A stretch of DNA of 64,000 bases. Origin: Bacilli bacterium (lineage in GTDB: Bacteria > Bacillota_I > Bacilli_A > RF39 > UBA660). Positions within the stretch are counted from its first letter, which is position 1, and each line of letters starts with the position of its first letter. This document shows positions 3-16,664 of this stretch, piece by piece. The notes under the pieces were generated by a model, which was not told the origin of the DNA, ran no database searches, and saw only the letters and a program-made list of their open reading frames with translations. The position numbers and the translations under genes are program-made. The DNA lies in assembly GCA_017536505.1 (NCBI GenBank), contig JAFXHG010000027.1:89286-153285 (forward strand), given 5' to 3'.

Positions 3-785
3 CAACCTGCAATATCCCAATCAATAAAAAAACTTGAAGATCAATTGGGGGGTACATTATTCTTAAGAAGCAACAAAGGAATGGAGCTAACTGAAGAGGG
101 TAAAATGTTTTATGAATATGTCAAAGGAGCTTTAGAGCTTATTAATAATGCTGAAAATGAATTTACATCATTTAAAAATTTATCAAAGGGAGAAGTGAAA
201 ATTGGTTGTTCAACAACTTTAACAAAATTAATCTTAATAGATGTTTTGAAAAAATTTAATAAAGAATATCCAAATATAAGTATTAATATAACAAATGATT
301 TAACAAGTAATTTAATAAATGATTTAAAATTAGGCAAATTAGATTTTGTAATTTTCAATGAAAGTAATATAAAAGAAACTAATTTGCATTTAGAAAAAAT
401 AAAAGAATTAAAACAGGGTTTTGTTTATAACCCAGAATTTTATAATGATGAAATTAATTCTTTTGAGGATTTAAATAAATTTCCTCTTATATTACAAAAA
501 GAAGCATCAAATAGTAGAAAACTACTAGATTATATAGCTCTACAAAATAGTGTTAAATTAGTGCCTAAAATGGAAGTTGTGAGCCAAGAATTAATCACCG
601 AATTTGTTAATATAGGTTTAGGTATTGGATTTGCTATAATAGACTTAGCAACTAGAAATTATAAAAATATAAAAGAATTAAAAATTAATAAAAAAATACC
701 AAACATAAATATATATTTGGCAACTAACAAATCTGTTTCATTAACATTTGCAAGTAAAATGTTTATAAAATATTTAAGCCAGTAA
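3..785 (+). CDS. LysR-family transcriptional regulator (5' end outside window)
   Basis: Frame is open from base 3: QPAISQSIKKLEDQLGGTLFLRS (LysR HTH), followed by the substrate-binding domain (GEVKIGCS, GKLDF). Confidence 0.92.
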   Translation, partial: QPAISQSIKKLEDQLGGTLFLRSNKGMELTEEGKMFYEYVKGALELINNAENEFTSFKNLSKGEVKIGCSTTLTKLILIDVLKKFNKEYPNISINITNDLTSNLINDLKLGKLDFVIFNESNIKETNLHLEKIKELKQGFVYNPEFYNDEINSFEDLNKFPLILQKEASNSRKLLDYIALQNSVKLVPKMEVVSQELITEFVNIGLGIGFAIIDLATRNYKNIKELKINKKIPNINIYLATNKSVSLTFASKMFIKYLSQ

Positions 786-884
786 AAAATCTTTTTTGCT
801 ACTTTAGAATAAAAATTAGGAATATTCAATTTGAAAAGTGAATTTTTTCTTTAATAAATAGTGTTGGCATTCATCTAAGAGTGT

Positions 885-977
885 CTATTTTTTTATTGCT
901 AGCACCAGTAAGGTAGAAAGTAATTAAATGATAGCAATGAGGTTTAAAACTTTAACAATGAAAGTTTTAGTTTTCAT
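885..977 (-). pseudogene. Type I toxin-like small membrane peptide with in-frame TAA at codon 18 (MKTKTFIVKVLNLIAII*LLSTLLVLAIKK*)
   Basis: Strong SD (AGGGAGG) that can be sequestered in a hairpin; TTGTTT-17-TATAAT promoter upstream on the minus strand; hydrophobic helix with basic tail; not in ORF track. Confidence 0.5.
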
Positions 978-1184
978 TAATATCTACCTCCCTTCTTTTT
1001 CAAGATTGGAGGACGACACTCACATTAAATGTTCCTATATATAATTATACTATTTGTATATATTAAAAACAAGCCAACATTGATAAAATTTTTATTTTTG
1101 GTAATTAGGATTGTGTCGCATTTATATTTTGATAATTGTGTTAAAATAGCTAGAAAAGCAACTATAAACAGTTGCTTTTTTTAC

Positions 1185-1355
1185 TTAGTCACATCTTCTT
1201 GGACGATCAAAATAATTGTCTTTACCATTACAGAATATAAAGAATATTATAAATATTACAATTAAAATCCAAACCCAAGAAATACCACCATATCCATAAC
1301 CACATCCATAGCCATATCCACCAAAGGGATAACCACCATATACATAACCAAACAT
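1185..1355 (-). CDS. Small Gly/Tyr-rich membrane protein, YjcZ-like sporulation protein
   Basis: AAGGAG SD before ATG 1355; GYGYG repeats followed by one TM helix (WVWILIVIFIIFFIF). Confidence 0.6.
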   Translation of the reverse strand: MFGYVYGGYPFGGYGYGCGYGYGGISWVWILIVIFIIFFIFCNGKDNYFDRPRRCD

Positions 1356-1478
1356 ATTAATATCTCCTTTCATAATATTATATTTTAATAAAAAATGTGT
1401 AAATACATAGGATACCTAAAAATATTGTTTTTTTTGTATATTTATTAGAGAAATAAAAAAAGCACAATAAAGTACTTT

Positions 1479-1745
1479 TTATCTGCTTAAACTAAATATT
1501 TCAAACTGTTCAGCGAATTTTTCAAGATCATCAATAATAAATAAGTCACTACTCCAATTACCTGGCCATACAGCATATAAAGTAGTAATTTTTTTGTCAG
1601 CTCTTTTATATGCTTCGATTACTCCTTCAAAATCACATTTATTTTTATGTCTAATTCTATTTACTTTCCCATCTTTATAGACTTCAAAATAACAAACTGT
1701 ACTCATTCTATATGGAAAATTTTCTGTTTCTTTTGCACTTCTCAT
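1479..1745 (-). CDS. Hypothetical protein
   Basis: AAGGAG SD before ATG 1745; protein-like composition (LYAVWPGNWSSDLF). Confidence 0.65.
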   Translation of the reverse strand: MRSAKETENFPYRMSTVCYFEVYKDGKVNRIRHKNKCDFEGVIEAYKRADKKITTLYAVWPGNWSSDLFIIDDLEKFAEQFEIFSLSR

Positions 1746-1863
1746 AAAACACACTCCTTTTTTTCTTTATTATAGCACACAAAATTATATATTTTTAATT
1801 TTTTAAATTAAAAATTTCATTAAAAATACACATTATAATGTATAATAAAATTAGAGGTGTTTT

Positions 1864-2526
1864 ATGAAAATATTAATAGTAGACGATGAAAAAGGAATAA
1901 GAGAAGTTATAAAAGAATATTCAATAAACGAGGGATTTTCTACTTTGGAATCAGAAAATGGAATAGAAGCTTTAGCTATACTTGAGAAAAATACTGATAT
2001 AGATGTTATTATATTAGATATAATGATGCCTAAAATGGATGGATATACAACTTTAAAAGAAATAAGAAAAAATTATGATATACCTGTAATAATGTTATCA
2101 GCTAGGGCAGATGAGTTTGATAAACTACAAAGTTTTGATTTAGGAGTCGATGATTATGTTACTAAACCATTTAGTCCCAAGGAATTAATGGCTCGTATTA
2201 AAGTAGTAACAGGAAGAAATAAAAATAATCTAGATGAATATGTATATAAAAATTTAAAAATAAATTATTTAGGACATAATGTACTTATAAATAATAAAGA
2301 AATAAAACTTACTCCAAAAGAATATGAGATGTTAGTATATTTTGTACAAAATAAAGGAATTGCTTTATCAAGAGAGACATTATTAAGTAAAATATGGGGT
2401 TATGATTTTTATGGTGATGATAGAACAATAGATACTCATATAAAGATGTTAAGAAATAGTTTAGGCGAATATAGGAATTTAATAACTACTGTAAGAGGAA
2501 TGGGTTATAAATATGAAGAAAAGTAA
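1864..2526 (+). CDS. OmpR/PhoB-family response regulator
   Basis: ILIVDDE, LDIMMP, KPFS receiver motifs; winged-helix C-terminus (TIDTHIKMLR, RGMGY). Confidence 0.96.
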   Translation: MKILIVDDEKGIREVIKEYSINEGFSTLESENGIEALAILEKNTDIDVIILDIMMPKMDGYTTLKEIRKNYDIPVIMLSARADEFDKLQSFDLGVDDYVTKPFSPKELMARIKVVTGRNKNNLDEYVYKNLKINYLGHNVLINNKEIKLTPKEYEMLVYFVQNKGIALSRETLLSKIWGYDFYGDDRTIDTHIKMLRNSLGEYRNLITTVRGMGYKYEEK

Positions 2527-3898
2527 GTTAAAAAATAAAGTATGGTTTTATTTGCTTATATTTGCAATAGTAATTATATGTGGTATATGGTTTTTACAAA
2601 TTCTATCACTTGATTTATATTATGAAATAAGTAAAAAAGGTGAGATTAAAGATATAGCTACTATGGTATCTAAAAATTATACTAGTGGTGATTATGAGGA
2701 AAAATTAAATAGATTATCTTTTGAAAAAGATGTATGTATAGAAATAACTGAAAATAATAATATATCATATTCTACTGATAGCACTAGTAGGGGTTGTTTA
2801 ATAAACAGTAGAGAAATAAATCAATATAAATTAGAATTTATGTTAAGTAGTAAAAAATCGGTAACATACAGAGTAATTCATCCTAATTTTAAAAATAAAA
2901 CATTAATATATGGAGTAAAAATACAAGATGGAACTTATGCTTTTATAAGTACATCTTTAGAACCTGTTAGTTCTACAGTATCAGTATTAAAAAAACAATT
3001 ATTACAAGTTATGATAATAGTTTTAATACTTGCATTCATAATAGGTAATATAATATCGAAAAAAATATCTAAACCTATAGAAAAAATAAACAAAACTAGT
3101 AAAGAAATAAGTAAAGGGAATTATGATGTAGTATTTGATACTAAAACAGATATTATGGAATTAAAAGAATTAGAAGGAACTTTAAATGACATGGCTATAG
3201 AGCTTTCTAAAACAGAAGAACTTAGAAGAGATTTAATGGCTAATGTATCTCATGATTTAAAAACTCCATTAACTTTAATTAAAGCTAATGCGGAAATGGT
3301 TAAGGATTTAACATATAAAAATAAAGAAAAAAGAGAAAAAAATTTAAACACAATCATAGAAGAAGTAGATAGATTAAATTTACTTGTCGAAGATATATTA
3401 GATTTATCTAAGATACAATCTAAGTCTGTTGAGTTAAATTTAGAAAGATTTAATATAAATGAGTTAATTATAGATATAATAAATAAATTTGAAATATTGT
3501 GTGAAAAAGATGGGTATATAATTGAGTATGAGGGTTTTGATATAGATATTACAGCAGATAAAAATAAACTAAAACAAACTATTTATAATTTAATAAATAA
3601 TGCGATTAATTATACTGGAGAAGATAAAAAAGTTTATGTAAAATTATTTAAAATTAATGATATAGTAAGAATAGAAATTATTGATACAGGTAAAGGTATC
3701 GATAAAAAAGATATTAAATATATTTGGGACAAATATTATAAAGTAGATAAAAAATATAAACGAGTTACTTATGGTACTGGATTAGGTCTTTCTATAGTTA
3801 AAAATATTTTAAATTTACATGGATTTAACTATGGAGTGGAGAGTAAAAAAGGTATTGGAACTAAATTCTATTTTGATATAAAAAATCCCAAAAAATAA
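2513..3898 (+). CDS. Sensor histidine kinase (HAMP, HisKA, HATPase)
   Basis: Two TM helices; SHDLKTPL H-box, NLINNA, DTGKGI, GTGLGL; overlaps the regulator gene. Confidence 0.96.
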   Translation: MKKSKLKNKVWFYLLIFAIVIICGIWFLQILSLDLYYEISKKGEIKDIATMVSKNYTSGDYEEKLNRLSFEKDVCIEITENNNISYSTDSTSRGCLINSREINQYKLEFMLSSKKSVTYRVIHPNFKNKTLIYGVKIQDGTYAFISTSLEPVSSTVSVLKKQLLQVMIIVLILAFIIGNIISKKISKPIEKINKTSKEISKGNYDVVFDTKTDIMELKELEGTLNDMAIELSKTEELRRDLMANVSHDLKTPLTLIKANAEMVKDLTYKNKEKREKNLNTIIEEVDRLNLLVEDILDLSKIQSKSVELNLERFNINELIIDIINKFEILCEKDGYIIEYEGFDIDITADKNKLKQTIYNLINNAINYTGEDKKVYVKLFKINDIVRIEIIDTGKGIDKKDIKYIWDKYYKVDKKYKRVTYGTGLGLSIVKNILNLHGFNYGVESKKGIGTKFYFDIKNPKK

Positions 3899-4055
3899 AA
3901 AATGTAAAAAAGTGTTTTTTTCAAAAAATACTTTTTTTATTTTTTTAAAAAGATAAAGTTATTGAAAATAAAGGGTTCTTTGCAATTTAAAAAAACAAAA
4001 AAATAAAAAATCAAAAAAACAGAAAAAATAATTTTTAAATTTTATTAAAAATCTA

Positions 4056-4084
4056 TTGACTATAAAATAGGTCGATGATATACT
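4056..4084 (+). promoter_or_regulatory. SigA promoter of the nrdD operon
   Basis: TTGACT-17 bp-TATACT with extended TG. Confidence 0.7.
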
Positions 4085-4108
4085 TGAATTGTAAAAAAGA
4101 ATAGGAGT

Positions 4109-6415
4109 ATGTTTATGACAGAAGTAGAAGAAAAATTAGAACTAGTAGTAGTTAAGAGAAACGGAAAAAAAGTAGATTTTAATGGTACTAAAATAGCTTT
4201 AGCTATCAAAAAAGGATTTGATAGTGTAAATGAACAAGATGAAGAAACAGGTAAATATAAATATGATGATAAAGATATTACTAAAGTATATAATGAAGTA
4301 ATTAAATCAATAGAAAAAAATTATACTGATAAAATAAAAATAGAAGAAATTCAAGATTTAATAGAAGTATCTTTGAAGAAAAAAGGATATGAAGAAGTTT
4401 ATGTATCTTTTGCTGAATATAGAGATAGAAGAGCTCAATCAAGAGAAATGTTTGTTGATGATAAAAGAATGCATAAATTTTTAAAAACTATTGAAGGTTT
4501 AGGATTGAAATCTGCTTCAGAAGATGATACAAAAAGAGAAAATGCAAATGTAGATGGTGATACTGCAATGGGAACTATGCTTCAATATGGTTCTACTGTA
4601 TCAAAAGAGTTTGCTAAAGCATATTTAGTTAAGAAGAAATTCTCAGATGCACATGATAATGGAGAAATCCATATTCATGATATGGATTTCCTTGCAATGG
4701 GAACTACAACTTGTATGCAAATTGAACTTGATAGATTATTTAAAAAAGGTTTTTCAACAGGACATGGTTATTTAAGACCACCAAAAGATATTGCATCTTT
4801 TAGTGCACTTGCAGCTATAGCTGTTCAAGCAAATCAAAATGATCAACATGGTGGACAAAGTATTCCAGCTTTCGATTATTTTATGGCTCCTGGTGTACTT
4901 ATGACATTTAAAAAACAATTAAAACAACAAATAAGTGATTATCTTGATTTAGAAGGATTACTTTCTCATATAAGTATGGATAGAGTAGCTCGTGAAATAG
5001 ATAAGTTAGAAAGTATTAATTTTAGTATAGAGATATTTAAACCTATATATAAAGAATCAGAACAAATAGAAAGATTATTTACTAAAGCTTATGAAAAAGC
5101 ATTAGCTAAAACAGATAGATTAACTTATCAAGCTATGGAAGCATTTATTCATAATTTAAATACAATGCATTCTAGAGCAGGTGCTCAAGTGCCATTCTCA
5201 TCAATTAACTTTGGAACTGACATAAGCCCAGAAGGAAGAATGGTATCACTTAATTTCTTAAAAGCTACAGATGCAGGATTAGGAAGAGGTGAAACTCCAA
5301 TATTCCCAGTATCAATATTTAAGGTAAAAGAAGGAGTTAACTATAATCCAGAAGATCCAAACTATGATATATTTAGAAAATCATGTGAAGTATCTGCGAA
5401 AAGATTATTCCCTAACTTCTCATTCTTAGATGCTCCATTTAATCTTTCATTCTATAAACCAGGTGATTATAGAACTGAAGTAGGTTATATGGGATGTAGA
5501 ACAAGAGTTATGAGTGATATAACAGACTTAAATAATCAAACAACAGGTGGTAGAGGTAACTTATCATTTACTTCAATAAATCTACCTAGAATAGCTATAA
5601 AACATGGTATTTGCTTAAAAGAAAGAGATAAAGCTGATATGGAAGGTTTCTACAAAGAACTTGGAGAAACTATGGAACTTGTTAGAGATCAATTGTTAGA
5701 AAGATTTGAAATTCAATGTAATAAGAGATGCTATAACTTCCCATTCTTAATTGAACAAGGGGTATGGACAGATGGAGATAAATTAAAACCAACTGATAGA
5801 ATGAGAAAAATATTAAAACATGGTAGTTTAACTTTAGGTTTTATAGGACTTGCTGAAACTTTAAAAGCTTTAATAGGGGAACACCATGGTGAATCAGAAA
5901 AAGCTCAAAAATTAGGATTAGAAATAATCGGATTTATGAGAAAAAAATCAGATGAATTCTCAAAAGATTATAATTTAAATTTCGCACTTATAGCTACACC
6001 AGCAGAAGGACTTTCTGGAAGATTTGTTAATATAGATAGAGCAATCTATGGAAAAATTAAAGGTGTAACTGATAGAAGTTACTATACAAATTCATTCCAT
6101 GTTCCAGTTTATTATAATACATCAATTAAACATAAACTTGAAACAGAAGCTCCATATCATAATTTAACAAATGGTGGACATATTTCTTATATTGAATTTG
6201 ATGGAAATACTGCTATGAATGTTGATGCATTTGAAAGTGTAATTAGAATGATGAAAGAAATGGGAATTGGTTATGGTGCTATTAACCATCCAGTAGATAG
6301 AGATCCAGTATGTGGATATGTAGGGGTAATTGGAGATGTGTGTCCAGGATGTGGACGTAAAGAATTTGATTCAGTACCACTTGAAGAAGTAAAACATTAT
6401 CAATGTGGTTGTTAA
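4109..6415 (+). CDS. nrdD: Anaerobic class III ribonucleotide reductase, large chain lacking the glycyl-radical loop
   Basis: ATP cone (VVKRNG), HIHDMD, GYMGCRT finger-loop Cys, ATPAEG, YYTNS, DPVC..CPGC Zn site; no RxxGY motif. Confidence 0.95.
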   Translation: MFMTEVEEKLELVVVKRNGKKVDFNGTKIALAIKKGFDSVNEQDEETGKYKYDDKDITKVYNEVIKSIEKNYTDKIKIEEIQDLIEVSLKKKGYEEVYVSFAEYRDRRAQSREMFVDDKRMHKFLKTIEGLGLKSASEDDTKRENANVDGDTAMGTMLQYGSTVSKEFAKAYLVKKKFSDAHDNGEIHIHDMDFLAMGTTTCMQIELDRLFKKGFSTGHGYLRPPKDIASFSALAAIAVQANQNDQHGGQSIPAFDYFMAPGVLMTFKKQLKQQISDYLDLEGLLSHISMDRVAREIDKLESINFSIEIFKPIYKESEQIERLFTKAYEKALAKTDRLTYQAMEAFIHNLNTMHSRAGAQVPFSSINFGTDISPEGRMVSLNFLKATDAGLGRGETPIFPVSIFKVKEGVNYNPEDPNYDIFRKSCEVSAKRLFPNFSFLDAPFNLSFYKPGDYRTEVGYMGCRTRVMSDITDLNNQTTGGRGNLSFTSINLPRIAIKHGICLKERDKADMEGFYKELGETMELVRDQLLERFEIQCNKRCYNFPFLIEQGVWTDGDKLKPTDRMRKILKHGSLTLGFIGLAETLKALIGEHHGESEKAQKLGLEIIGFMRKKSDEFSKDYNLNFALIATPAEGLSGRFVNIDRAIYGKIKGVTDRSYYTNSFHVPVYYNTSIKHKLETEAPYHNLTNGGHISYIEFDGNTAMNVDAFESVIRMMKEMGIGYGAINHPVDRDPVCGYVGVIGDVCPGCGRKEFDSVPLEEVKHYQCGC

Positions 6416-6426
6416 GGAGGTAAATT

Positions 6427-6597
6427 ATGGAAAAATTAGTTGGTGAAGGTGTAGGATTCGAAAGAATTAGAAGAGTTACGGGATACTTAAGTGGAGATGT
6501 AAAACGTTTTAATAATGGTAAACGTGCTGAAGAAAAGGATCGTGTAAAACACACTGGTATCAAAGAAGTAATGGCTCAAGAAAAGTGTGCTAAATAA
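6427..6597 (+). CDS. Stand-alone 56-aa NrdD glycyl-radical domain
   Basis: MEKLVGEGVGFERIRRVTGYLSGDVKRFNNGKRAEEKDRVKH...; own GGAGG SD; different frame from nrdD; its TAA overlaps the nrdG ATG; missing from ORF track. Confidence 0.92.
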   Translation: MEKLVGEGVGFERIRRVTGYLSGDVKRFNNGKRAEEKDRVKHTGIKEVMAQEKCAK

Positions 6598-7139
6598 TGA
6601 AAATTAGACTAGCTGCTGATTTACAAACAGATAGTATAGTTGATGGTTTAGGGATAAGGACTGTTATTTGGACACAAGGTTGTTCTCATAACTGTCCTAA
6701 TTGCCATAATCCAGGAACTCATGATTTTAATGGTGGAGATTTAGTTGAACTTGATGATGTAATAGAAGAAATAGAAAATCTATCTGGTCAAGATGGAGTT
6801 ACTTTTTCTGGAGGAGACCCTATGTTTCAACCTAAACAATGTAGTGTACTTGCTCAAAAAGTACATGAATTAGGTATGAATGTATGGACTTATACAGGAT
6901 TTACATATGAAGAATTAATTGAAAAAGGAAGTAAAGATATATTAGATTTTTTAAGTAACATAGATGTTCTTATAGATGGTAAATTTGATCCTTCTTTAAA
7001 AAGTTTGGACTGTGAATTTAGAGGTTCTACAAATCAAAGACTTATAGATGTATGTAAATCATTAGAAAATCATGAAGTAGTACTATATGATTTAAATAAA
7101 AAACAAAATAATAAAAAGAAAGAAACTTTGTATATATGA
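6597..7139 (+). CDS. nrdG: Anaerobic RNR activating enzyme (radical SAM)
   Basis: SIVDGLGIR, CSHNCPNC radical-SAM motif, GGDP, FRGSTNQR. Confidence 0.96.
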   Translation: MKIRLAADLQTDSIVDGLGIRTVIWTQGCSHNCPNCHNPGTHDFNGGDLVELDDVIEEIENLSGQDGVTFSGGDPMFQPKQCSVLAQKVHELGMNVWTYTGFTYEELIEKGSKDILDFLSNIDVLIDGKFDPSLKSLDCEFRGSTNQRLIDVCKSLENHEVVLYDLNKKQNNKKKETLYI

Positions 7140-7203
7140 GTTTCTTTTAATTTGCTTTTTTTTAAAATTCATGTATAATATAACAGGTCAAAGGGATGAT
7201 ATT

Positions 7204-7596
7204 ATGTTTGGAGAAAAACCAATGTTTGGACAAAATGAAATTAAAGTTGATGAAAAGGGACGTATTTTTATTCCAGCTTATACAAAAAGAGAACCTGGAG
7301 AAGAATTAGTTTTGATGTATAATGAAAACTTGAAATTACATGAAATTTATAGTGTGCAAAAACTAGATGATAGATTTAAAAAATTAAGTGATTTAATAGA
7401 TAAATCAATAACAAAAAAAGAAAAAAATTTCTATGAAAAAATGTTGTTAGAACTTAGTAAATCTATATTAAGAAGTGAAACTATTGATTGTCAAGGAAGA
7501 TTTTTAACTGGTAAAGTATTTGAAGGACAAGAAAAAGTACTATGTACAGGAGCTCATGATCACTTAATAATAGAACCTGTAAAAAGTAAGAAGTAA
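7204..7596 (+). CDS. Divergent MraZ-like (SpoVT/AbrB fold) regulator
   Basis: Two repeats, VDEKGRIFIP and IDCQGRFL, match MraZ DxKGR/DxQGR motifs; not in a dcw cluster. Confidence 0.7.
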   Translation: MFGEKPMFGQNEIKVDEKGRIFIPAYTKREPGEELVLMYNENLKLHEIYSVQKLDDRFKKLSDLIDKSITKKEKNFYEKMLLELSKSILRSETIDCQGRFLTGKVFEGQEKVLCTGAHDHLIIEPVKSKK

Positions 7597-7642: not shown

Positions 7643-8110
7643 ATGAAAAAGAATGCTAAAAACATTTTACTTTTTGGATTAATATTTGTAATAATAGATC
7701 AAATAGTAAAAGTAGTATTAAGTAGTAAAATGATTGTTAATCAATCTTTTGTAATTATAAAAGATTTTTTTTCAATTACTCTTGCACATAATACAGGTGC
7801 AGCATTTAGTATATTAACAGGAAATAGATATTTACTTATAGTTATTGGTATACTCGCACTAATTGGGTTATTTATATATATAAAAAAGTTAGAAGTATTT
7901 GATGATATTGATACTTTTACTTATTCACTTTTAATAGGTGGTATAGTAGGTAATTTAATAGATAGAATAGTGCATGGATATGTAATAGATTATTTAAGTT
8001 TTAGTTTTGGAAATTTTTATTTTCCAATATTTAACTTTGCAGATATTTGTATAGTAATATCTATTATAATCATTTTATTTAGAATGATTAAGGAGGATTT
8101 ATGGAAATAG
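7643..8110 (+). CDS. lspA: Lipoprotein signal peptidase II
   Basis: DQIVK, NTGAAFS, GNLIDR, VIDY, FNFAD. Confidence 0.95.
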   Translation: MKKNAKNILLFGLIFVIIDQIVKVVLSSKMIVNQSFVIIKDFFSITLAHNTGAAFSILTGNRYLLIVIGILALIGLFIYIKKLEVFDDIDTFTYSLLIGGIVGNLIDRIVHGYVIDYLSFSFGNFYFPIFNFADICIVISIIIILFRMIKEDLWK

Positions 8111-9003
8111 TTATAGAGGAAGATTTAGGTGTTAGAATAGATTCTTATTTAAGTAACCAATTAGATTACAGTAGAAGCAAAATTGTTAAAATGATAAATG
8201 ATGGAACAATTTTGGTAAATGGTAAGAGTATTAAAAATAGTTATTCATTAAAAAAAGATGATGTTATAACAATTGGTGAATATATAGAAGAAGAAATGAA
8301 TATAGAACCTGAAAATATACCTTTAGATATTGTTTATGAAGATGAAGATGTAATAGTAGTAAATAAACCTAATGGTATGGTAGTTCATCCAGCTATAGGA
8401 AATAATCATGGTACTTTGGTAAATGCACTTCTTTATTACTCAAAAAAATTAAGTAATATAAATGGTGAATTTAGACCTGGTATAGTACATAGAATAGATG
8501 CTTATACAACAGGACTTTTAATGGTAGCCAAAACTAATAAGTCTCATGAAATATTAGCTGAACAACTTAGTAAAAAAGAAACTACTAGAAGGTATATCGC
8601 ACTTGTTTGGGGAGTTATAAAAGAAGATACTGCTACTATAGATGCTCCAATAGGAAGAGATAGTAACGATAGAAAGAAAATGGCAGTAACTAGTATAAAT
8701 AGTAAAGATGCAGTAACTCATTTAAAGGTATTAAAAAGATTTAAAGATGCAACTTTAATAGAATTACAACTAGAAACAGGGAGAACTCATCAAATAAGGG
8801 TTCATATGAATTATATAAATCATCCTGTAGTTAATGATCCTGTATATGGAAGAAGAAAATTAATAGATGAAACAGGACAATGTTTACACGCTTATCAAAT
8901 AGGCTTTAATCATCCAACAACGAATAAATATATGGAATTTAAATGTGAATTACCTGAATGTTTTAAAAATATATTAGATATGTTTGAAGAAGAAAGTATA
9001 TAA
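8101..9003 (+). CDS. rluD: RluA/RluD-family pseudouridine synthase with S4 domain
   Basis: HRID catalytic motif, GRTHQIR, VNKP; follows lspA as in many Firmicutes. Confidence 0.9.
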   Translation: MEIVIEEDLGVRIDSYLSNQLDYSRSKIVKMINDGTILVNGKSIKNSYSLKKDDVITIGEYIEEEMNIEPENIPLDIVYEDEDVIVVNKPNGMVVHPAIGNNHGTLVNALLYYSKKLSNINGEFRPGIVHRIDAYTTGLLMVAKTNKSHEILAEQLSKKETTRRYIALVWGVIKEDTATIDAPIGRDSNDRKKMAVTSINSKDAVTHLKVLKRFKDATLIELQLETGRTHQIRVHMNYINHPVVNDPVYGRRKLIDETGQCLHAYQIGFNHPTTNKYMEFKCELPECFKNILDMFEEESI

Positions 9004-16111: not shown

Positions 16112-16664
16112 TATGTTAAAAAACTTAGTATTACATTTTAATTTGATTAATAAACATAGATTTAAAGTATTTAAATTATGCATTAAGGCAGGAATCCCTT
16201 TTAGAGGTTTAATACATGATTTATCAAAATATTCTCCCACAGAATTTTTTGAAAGTATTAAATATTATAAAGGAAGTTATAGTCCAATAAGTGCTTGCAA
16301 AAAAGAAAATGGTTATTCTAAAGCTTGGTTACATCATAAAGGTAGAAATAAACATCACCATGAATATTGGTATGATTATTCAGCCCCTAATACAACTGCT
16401 TTAATGCCATATAAATATACAGTTGAAATGATATGTGATACATTAGCAGCTGGAATGACATATCAAGGTAAAAATTGGACTAACGATTATCAATTAAACT
16501 ATTATTTAAAAGATAGAGAAAAAAAACATATTAATCCTATAATAGATGATATATTATTAGAAGTTTATAAGTTAATAAGTCAAAAAGGAATTAATGAAGT
16601 GATTAATTCAAAAACTTTAAAAAGAATATATTATAAACATATAGATAAAAAGGTGATAAAATGA
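16104..16664 (+). CDS. HD-like hypothetical protein (DUF5662-like)
   Basis: H...HDLSK...HHKGRNKHHHEYW...EMICD metal-binding pattern. Confidence 0.7.
   Translation: MNNMLKNLVLHFNLINKHRFKVFKLCIKAGIPFRGLIHDLSKYSPTEFFESIKYYKGSYSPISACKKENGYSKAWLHHKGRNKHHHEYWYDYSAPNTTALMPYKYTVEMICDTLAAGMTYQGKNWTNDYQLNYYLKDREKKHINPIIDDILLEVYKLISQKGINEVINSKTLKRIYYKHIDKKVIK

Follow-up and report, generated by a model that had tools for sequence, protein, structure and literature searches.

A putative two-chain class III ribonucleotide reductase with its glycyl-radical loop encoded by a separate 56-amino-acid gene in uncultured gut Bacilli

Class III ribonucleotide reductases (RNRs) are described as enzymes with a single catalytic chain, NrdD, that carries the glycyl radical on its own C-terminus. 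In the case of pyruvate formate-lyase (PFL), another glycyl-radical enzyme, the Y06I protein of phage T4 is a phage-encoded autonomous spare part, and GrcA (YfiD) of Escherichia coli is a small stand-alone protein with a PFL-type radical loop (Pfam Gly_radical) that is charged by the activase, coexists with full-length PFL and replaces its O2-cleaved domain. In class I RNRs (alpha + beta), the stable radical is stored on a polypeptide apart from the catalytic barrel, beta being an unrelated ferritin-like metalloprotein from which the radical is transferred over a long range. The B12-dependent class II RNR of Pseudomonas aeruginosa is split into NrdJa and NrdJb (Crona et al. 2015, cited in PMC9669993); the catalytic chain is reportedly divided near its C-terminus, and the C-terminal piece holds a zinc-finger/Cys region and bears the reducing Cys tail rather than a radical, with no glycyl radical involved. 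The one-piece NrdD of Prevotella copri (structure 8P23) requires formate, its C-terminal glycyl-radical domain is highly mobile and moves as a rigid body, and Gly711 adjoins Cys416 in the active state only (PMC11226230). Here we describe a locus in which the radical loop is a gene of its own. It occupies positions 4109-7139 of a 64,000-nucleotide stretch of DNA, called the window throughout, from a Bacilli bacterium (GTDB lineage Bacteria; Bacillota_I; Bacilli_A; RF39; UBA660; assembly GCA_017536505.1, contig JAFXHG010000027.1, positions 89,286 to 153,285 of the forward strand), and consists of three tightly packed genes on the + strand: nrdD, an open reading frame (ORF) of 56 amino acids (aa), and nrdG.

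We propose, with a probability of roughly 0.85, that this single operon encodes a functional, obligate two-chain class III RNR of the formate type, in which the small chain would be the regular radical subunit and would be activated by NrdG. The class itself is known, and the two-chain layout appears to be new: a full-text literature search returned no account of a class III RNR split in this way, nor of any autonomous radical protein of the NrdD type, just as an earlier interpretation made from the letters of the window alone (the sequence-only reading) knew of no biochemical study. Like the one-piece NrdD/NrdG systems of P. copri (8P23), phage T4 (1H78/1H79) and E. coli, the locus encodes an ATP-cone, a catalytic barrel, a finger-loop Cys within an M-G-C motif, a metal ribbon, an RxxGY loop followed by ...RVKH, and an adjacent nrdG. 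Unlike those systems, it has the radical loop and the C-terminal helix segment, which together ordinarily form the final ~35 residues of NrdD itself, on a separate 56-aa gene product. The large chain also has ~18 extra tail residues with a Cys pair, the small chain has ~10 extra N-terminal residues, and the first metal ligand is Asp instead of Cys, the last feature being common to fused sisters of the same family. The small chain resembles GrcA as a small stand-alone radical-loop protein, here with its own Shine-Dalgarno sequence (SD) and ATG, but its loop is of the NRDD type, no NrdD with its own loop is found in the genome, and it would be a constitutive subunit. A catalytic chain divided near its C-terminus is shared with NrdJa/NrdJb, and a radical stored apart from the barrel with class I, although the loop described here would insert into the barrel. 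The features of the locus are as follows.

4056 to 4084, + strand: candidate promoter (TTGACT, 17 nt, TG-TATACT), 25 nt 5' of nrdD, with 10/12 consensus matches and an extended -10 TG.
4109 to 6415, + strand: nrdD large chain, 768 aa, with ATP-cone, catalytic barrel, metal site and Cys-pair tail and without the glycyl-radical loop (Pfam and NCBIfam profiles).
4712 to 4714, + strand: codon of Cys202 (TTTCMQ), equivalent to Cys79 of T4 NrdD (alignment to T4 1H78).
5489 to 5497, + strand: Met461-Gly-Cys463 of the finger loop; Cys463, the predicted thiyl-radical site, is equivalent to T4 Cys290 and P. copri Cys416.
6302 to 6352, + strand: metal-site ribbon D732-P-V-C735 ... C745-P-G-C748 (alignment).
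6353 to 6412, + strand: large-chain tail GRKEFDSVPLEEVKHYQCGC, with the Cys pair at its end (comparison with fused relatives).
6413 to 6426, + strand: junction, with the nrdD stop TAA at 6413-6415, the SD AAGGAGG at 6414-6420 and a TAA in the small-ORF frame at 6421-6423 (sequence).
6427 to 6597, + strand: small chain, 56 aa, with the MEKxVGEG start, the FERIRRVTG19YL loop, the helix segment RFNNGKRAEEKDRVKH and a variable tail (profiles and conservation).
6481 to 6483, + strand: GGA codon of Gly19, the predicted glycyl-radical residue (motif aligned to the P. copri QRITGYL loop).
6597 to 7139, + strand: nrdG radical-SAM activase, 180 aa (TIGR02491; Fer4_12 and Radical_SAM domains).

Using profile searches, we find that one NrdD is distributed over two reading frames. 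The large chain matches positions 1-533 of the 562 positions of the Pfam NRDD model (PF13597; E 5.6e-184, 613 bits against a cut-off of 26.2) and the NCBIfam model NF005497 (1001 bits, cut-off 764), and has an ATP-cone at aa 13-109. It aligns with residues 8-710 of P. copri NrdD 8P23 (E 2.6e-172), and alignment to the T4 and P. copri enzymes shows that the catalytic residues Cys202, Met461, Cys463 (YMGCRT) and Asn484 are all present. The Met of the M-G-C finger loop reportedly marks formate-type enzymes. As the sequence-only reading had described, nrdD ends after its metal site with a Cys-rich tail: the C-terminus of the product is ...DRDPVCGYVGVIGDVCPGCGRKEFDSVPLEEVKHYQCGC, directly before the stop, and the 768-aa chain has no RxxGY motif, its profile coverage stopping at NRDD position 533 of 562.

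The remainder of the model is found on the small ORF. Its translation, MEKLVGEGVGFERIRRVTGYLSGDVKRFNNGKRAEEKDRVKHTGIKEVMAQEKCAK, matches NRDD positions 533-562 of 562 (E 1.2e-7, 31.2 bits, gathering score 26.2) and the last ~30 positions of three NrdD models of NCBIfam, which bears out the earlier identification of this then unlisted frame as the NrdD radical loop; in the Pfam and NCBIfam profiles alike, position 533 is a clean boundary between the two ORFs. The class III radical loop (MEKLVGEGVGFERIRRVTGYLSGDVKRFNNGKRAEEKDRVKH...) with its RxxGY motif (RRVTG19YL) is present in the system, then, on the separate 56-aa chain and not on the catalytic chain, and the small chain aligns with P. copri 8P23 residues 707-740. 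It matches NRDD models only and shows no homology to the PFL-type Gly_radical family (PF01228).

We next consider whether such an enzyme would be active. A profile search of the 1.19-Mb, 90% complete genome identifies the window nrdD as its sole NRDD large chain, and finds no class I or class II RNR catalytic domain, whereas the same search found such a domain in 12 of 14 control genomes. Because it is the only RNR found in this genome, the split enzyme is most likely active; and because the large chain of this genome lacks its own loop, the small chain would be a regular subunit and not a spare. PFL provides a formate source in the genome. The sole significant PF01228 match in the genome is this fused PFL, a second match inside nrdD falling below the cut-off (E 0.003), and no PFL-type GrcA was found there: the RNR is split and the PFL is not. 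The one-piece PFL (a 748-aa frame at about 10453-13100 of contig C20 of the same genome, G000) adjoins an activase-like gene.

Based on the residues retained on the two chains, we infer that the enzyme would follow the usual class III mechanism, except that a second chain would provide the loop in trans. NrdG would abstract a hydrogen atom from Gly19 on the small chain. After assembly with the large chain, the loop would sit in the barrel beside Cys463 and would exchange the radical with Cys463 at each turnover, as in one-piece NrdD. Formate would be the reductant.

The arrangement extends far beyond this genome. In a scan of one genome per species, more than 438 species encode a relative of the 56-mer; our locus analyses use the best 80, all of them metagenome-assembled genomes of uncultured gut 'Bacilli', 'Tenericutes' or 'Mycoplasma sp. 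CAG:877'. A set of 5.8 billion proteins, from which candidates of roughly 31-98 aa were taken, contains 2054 matching small proteins, mostly unnamed or annotated as 'hypothetical'. In 80 split sequences, the N-terminus MEK[ILV][VI]GEG is nearly invariant and always stands 10 residues ahead of FERIRR. Purifying selection acts on the small-chain core, for which the mean proportion of nonsynonymous differences (pN) is 0.07 and that of synonymous differences (pS) 0.56 over 3160 species pairs. Within a sample of 151 genomes of the order, NrdD is present in 148 and the stand-alone small ORF in 63, and 14 genomes carry a fused NrdD, 'type A', which is ~780-808 aa long and similar to the small chain at its C-terminus; the remaining genomes have a more distant fused 'type B' NrdD (CxxC...CxxC, RRTCGY). 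At least seven genomes of the sample hold both a split and a type-B copy, and several hold two fused copies. The statement, in the sequence-only reading, that similar splits occur in other Firmicute genomes is well founded: a survey of nrdD/small ORF/nrdG synteny finds the split at 79 of 79 loci in relatives, besides the 63 genomes of the order.

A tree of the large chains, built without the C-terminal columns that contain the trait, places 74 of 75 split sequences in one clade with an SH-like approximate likelihood-ratio (SH-aLRT) support of 97. This clade is nested among fused type-A sequences and has a fused sequence as its sister, while the 75th split large chain sits on a long unresolved branch and has the same kind of tail. 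The simplest reading of this tree is one fission event from a fused NrdD of the same family, kept across dozens of genera. One bacterial family contains three forms of NrdD: fused type A, its split derivative, and the distant fused type B.

A comparison of the fused and split sequences suggests how the fission may have come about. Fused type-A sisters read CPGCGRTEEDGVHFERIRRITGYL; from the metal site through the loop, their sequence is ...DRDPVCGFxGVIxDxCPGCGRTEEDGVHFERIRRITGYLVGTVDRFNNGKRAEERDRVKH, and the window equivalent reads ...DRDPVCGYVGVIGDVCPGCGRKEFDSVPLEEVKHYQCGC, then a stop, the SD and MEKLVGEGVGFERIRRVTGYL.... The split therefore corresponds to an insertion between 'GRxE' and '(D/E)GVxFERIRR'. 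This insertion, in the linker after the metal site, is probably a partial tandem duplication. Aligned in register with the fused linker EEDGVHFERI, the window tail EFDSVPLEEV reaches a score of 24, the mean for shuffled sequences being 15.7 (p = 0.02); the tail EFEGVPMEKI aligns to the same linker, and the individual tails score 24-27 against shuffle means of ~16 (p ~0.01-0.02), in tests on five related tails that are not independent of one another. Additionally, HMMER aligns the tail with P. copri residues 704-710 and the beginning of the small chain with the same region, from 707 onward. Under this scenario, the first copy of the linker would have decayed into the tail that ends in the Cys pair, and the second would have retained the loop and gained an SD, an ATG and the MEKxVGEG start.

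The metal site and the tail deserve separate comment. The sequence-only reading had placed a zinc site at DPVC..CPGC; the site is there, but it is not a four-Cys zinc ribbon (CxxC...CxxC), the arrangement being D732-x2-C735 ... C745-x2-C748 with Asp732 in place of the first canonical Cys. This Asp occurs in 80 of 80 split sequences and in the fused type-A sisters. The tail GRKEFDSVPLEEVKHYQCGC is absent as such from fused relatives, and its Cys pair is kept in 76 of 80 split sequences, three of the 80 having a tail without any Cys. We considered whether the pair completes a four-Cys zinc site and find that it is not required for the metal site, because the fused sisters share the Asp and three Cys without the tail, and because of the three Cys-free tails. 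A thioredoxin shuttle like those of class I and II enzymes is an unlikely role for the pair, given the M-G-C finger loop, a closest structure of the formate type and the presence of PFL in the genome. The proposal that the two chains are tethered through Cys residues at their ends does not hold up, since RVKH is followed by no further Cys in 37 of the 80 small chains.

Some points weigh against the proposed two-chain enzyme and its history. The genome is incomplete, and it is possible that a second RNR lies on the missing DNA. Modelled with AlphaFold2, the pseudo-fusion obtained by reading through the junction of a close relative (L020, with TAG read as Gly and an alignment of 27 rows) has a mean predicted local distance difference test score (pLDDT) of 78.8 and a confident barrel, but the score falls below 50-60 over residues 751-800, which comprise the tail, the junction and the Gly loop, and the model speaks neither for nor against docking of the small chain or any role of the tail Cys pair. 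Lastly, the duplication that we infer as the origin of the split rests on the short and non-independent alignments given above.

The small gene is also found apart from nrdD and nrdG. A second copy of 50 aa in the same genome (MEEKGKGKGFERIRRVTGYLSGTVDRFNNAKRSEEKDRVKHSGIEEIKHK; G000:C25 at about 16195-16347, positions 8196-8348 of locus L084) is surrounded by typical phage ORFs in a prophage-like region: immediately downstream of it come a small ORF (phrog_2412), a large terminase and a portal gene, and neither nrdD nor nrdG is near. Just one further orphan (L081) occurs among the 80 species loci, and it too is beside a terminase small subunit. In IMG/VR, ~70 of the best 80 contigs, which range in G+C from 0.24 to 0.64, carry the small ORF by itself, neither nrdD nor nrdG lying within 5 kb, and three complete low-G+C phage genomes (43-49 kb) contain the small ORF alone, without a large chain and without nrdG. 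We found no PHROG family for these lone small chains. In one phage (L085), the protein core is identical to the host chain over 42 residues, yet the genes have many synonymous differences. We therefore take the phage genes to be old and selected; recent copying from host to phage is rejected, as synonymous sites are saturated. Judged by gene content, the lone phage and prophage copies show that the radical chain can be supplied in trans, and phages could carry the small gene alone because the chain would work in that way.

Some phages carry large chains as well. The cultured Eggerthella phage EL753P1 (L165, OP172808.1) has a split nrdD at 626-4087 of the locus, with a large chain that ends ...CPQCHRKEFEAVPEEYRD... 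and is interrupted at the catalytic Cys by an intein-like insert (YMG|C...SHN|CRTRV). The radical chain, unannotated, lies ~370 nt downstream and is broken between two frames precisely at FERIRRI (stop) / TTGYLTG...; a sequencing error, loss of function as a pseudogene or recoding could explain the break. In addition, the IMG/VR loci L130, L132 and L150 (frame 1641-5114) encode fused phage NrdDs of 1157 aa with a ~370-aa insertion, probably an intein, at the equivalent of Cys463 of the window.

The alternative that survives best is that the 56-aa protein is a diffusible radical cartridge. The chain would be charged by NrdG while free, would bind reversibly, and would be replaced by a fresh charged chain after O2 cleavage at Gly19 or quenching; the 88-kDa large chain would be spared, the split would have been selected as a cheap repair, and phages and prophages would bring a chain of their own to keep the host enzyme running. 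We regard this as unlikely, though well short of negligible. Cheap replacement after O2 damage is a chemically reasonable explanation of why the split is kept: attack by O2 cuts glycyl-radical enzymes at their radical Gly, and PFL cleaved in this way is rescued by GrcA/YfiD (PMC8683613; PMC13450708). The anatomy implies that only the 6-kDa chain would be cut here, a strong SD (AGGAGG or AGGAG) precedes the small ORF in 61 of 74 species, and the lone phage and prophage copies are under purifying selection. Yet a loopless large chain makes the small chain a regular part, and mutual need alone can preserve the split. Extra copies, moreover, are rare in split genomes (1 of 63), the prophage copy shares only 76% identity with the host chain, whose conserved MEKxVGEG start it does not have, and the low pLDDT of the tail, junction and loop means that the model offers no information on docking.

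A further observation that favors exchange comes from outside the split genomes. At least 12 of ~400 sampled genomes of the class, other Bacilli with a fused NrdD, carry a lone 72-123-aa frame with an NrdD-type loop. By its gene content, a GrcA-like arrangement is that of such lone ~90-aa proteins beside a fused NrdD, and not that of the window protein, which we continue to read as a regular subunit.

Six of these loci (L186-L191, in genomes G305, G197, G238, G497, G215 and G435) encode proteins of ~87-94 aa, in which an unmodelled N-terminal domain of ~50 residues (..VEVKNGY.EE.EI.AYI.YLK.KFP..) is followed by FERIRRITGYLVGT[LV]DRFNDAK.AEE.DRVKH. Their neighbors are housekeeping genes, according to a Pfam scan of four of the six loci, with dapF in two genera. 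The same type of N-terminal domain is also present in the IMG/VR loci L145, L146 and L159.

Programmed recoding, in which a frameshift or readthrough at the junction would yield an ordinary one-piece NrdD, is far less probable still, and we consider it very nearly excluded by the junction itself. The two ORFs are just 11 nt apart, as recoding might have it, but in the window they lie in different frames, each of which has a stop inside the spacer. The SD AAGGAGG starts within the nrdD stop codon, 6 nt separate its end from the ATG of the small ORF, and TAATG at 6595-6599 overlaps the nrdG ATG with the TAA of the small ORF, so that the sequence agrees with the earlier description of a dedicated SD over the nrdD stop, a change of frame and coupling to nrdG. 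A single indel cannot fuse the ORFs, because both frames are closed by stops, that of nrdD at 6413-6415 and that of the small ORF by the TAA at 6421-6423.

As a check on the junction, we used its conservation across 79 other species. At all 79 loci with nrdD upstream, nrdD has its own stop, the small ORF follows after ~10-51 nt, and nrdG comes directly thereafter. All three relative frames occur; at the 25 loci where the two ORFs share a frame, which could in principle be read through, between one and four stops of mixed type separate them. What is conserved instead is a canonical translation start, with an SD 3-12 nt before the ATG in 73 of 74 related small ORFs and an ATG in 74 of 74. With every frame relation, variable spacers and mixed stops, no conserved recoding signal is possible, and the claim that the split is no frameshift error is sustained. 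Finally, although the source is a metagenome-type assembly in 38 contigs, the idea that nrdD is truncated and non-functional, through decay or an assembly artefact, and that the small ORF is a leftover is already contradicted by the cross-species data, with the same split in 79 independently assembled species, a small ORF under purifying selection, no other RNR found in the genome, and an intact, translationally coupled nrdG.

A two-chain RNR of this kind would have practical and conceptual uses. The form is widespread, and a radical carried on a 6-kDa peptide could be labelled, mutated or synthesised separately, so that NrdG activation, loop docking and oxygen damage could each be studied directly. 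A June 2026 review names the formate lyases as the only glycyl-radical enzymes with known spare parts, the existence of others being 'yet to be determined' (PMC13450708), and the split RNR makes this question testable beyond PFL. If the cartridge interpretation were true, it and the ~90-aa lone proteins of other Bacilli would together be the first case of spare parts that serve a glycyl-radical enzyme besides PFL. The finding also bears on annotation: the small gene is usually uncalled or 'hypothetical', and automated annotation therefore shows a truncated, seemingly radical-less NrdD. In many gut phages, the lone small gene represents an unrecognised auxiliary gene.

Lastly, we describe the remaining features of the locus and its surroundings. 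The NrdG product scores 149.6 bits against TIGR02491 (cut-off 126.1). The best promoter-like site, at 4056-4084, is likely the promoter of the operon; it is a consensus match only, and in total the region has no more such sites than expected from shuffling. Inside the operon, none of the promoter-like sites in a consensus scan of the region stands out. Right after the operon, a 141-aa ORF (7171-7596) has a weak MraZ-like match at its N-terminus (E 0.0018, below the Pfam cut-off). The next ORFs encode 155 aa (7643-8110) and 300 aa (8101-9003), for which lspA and rluD are guesses from the translations only.

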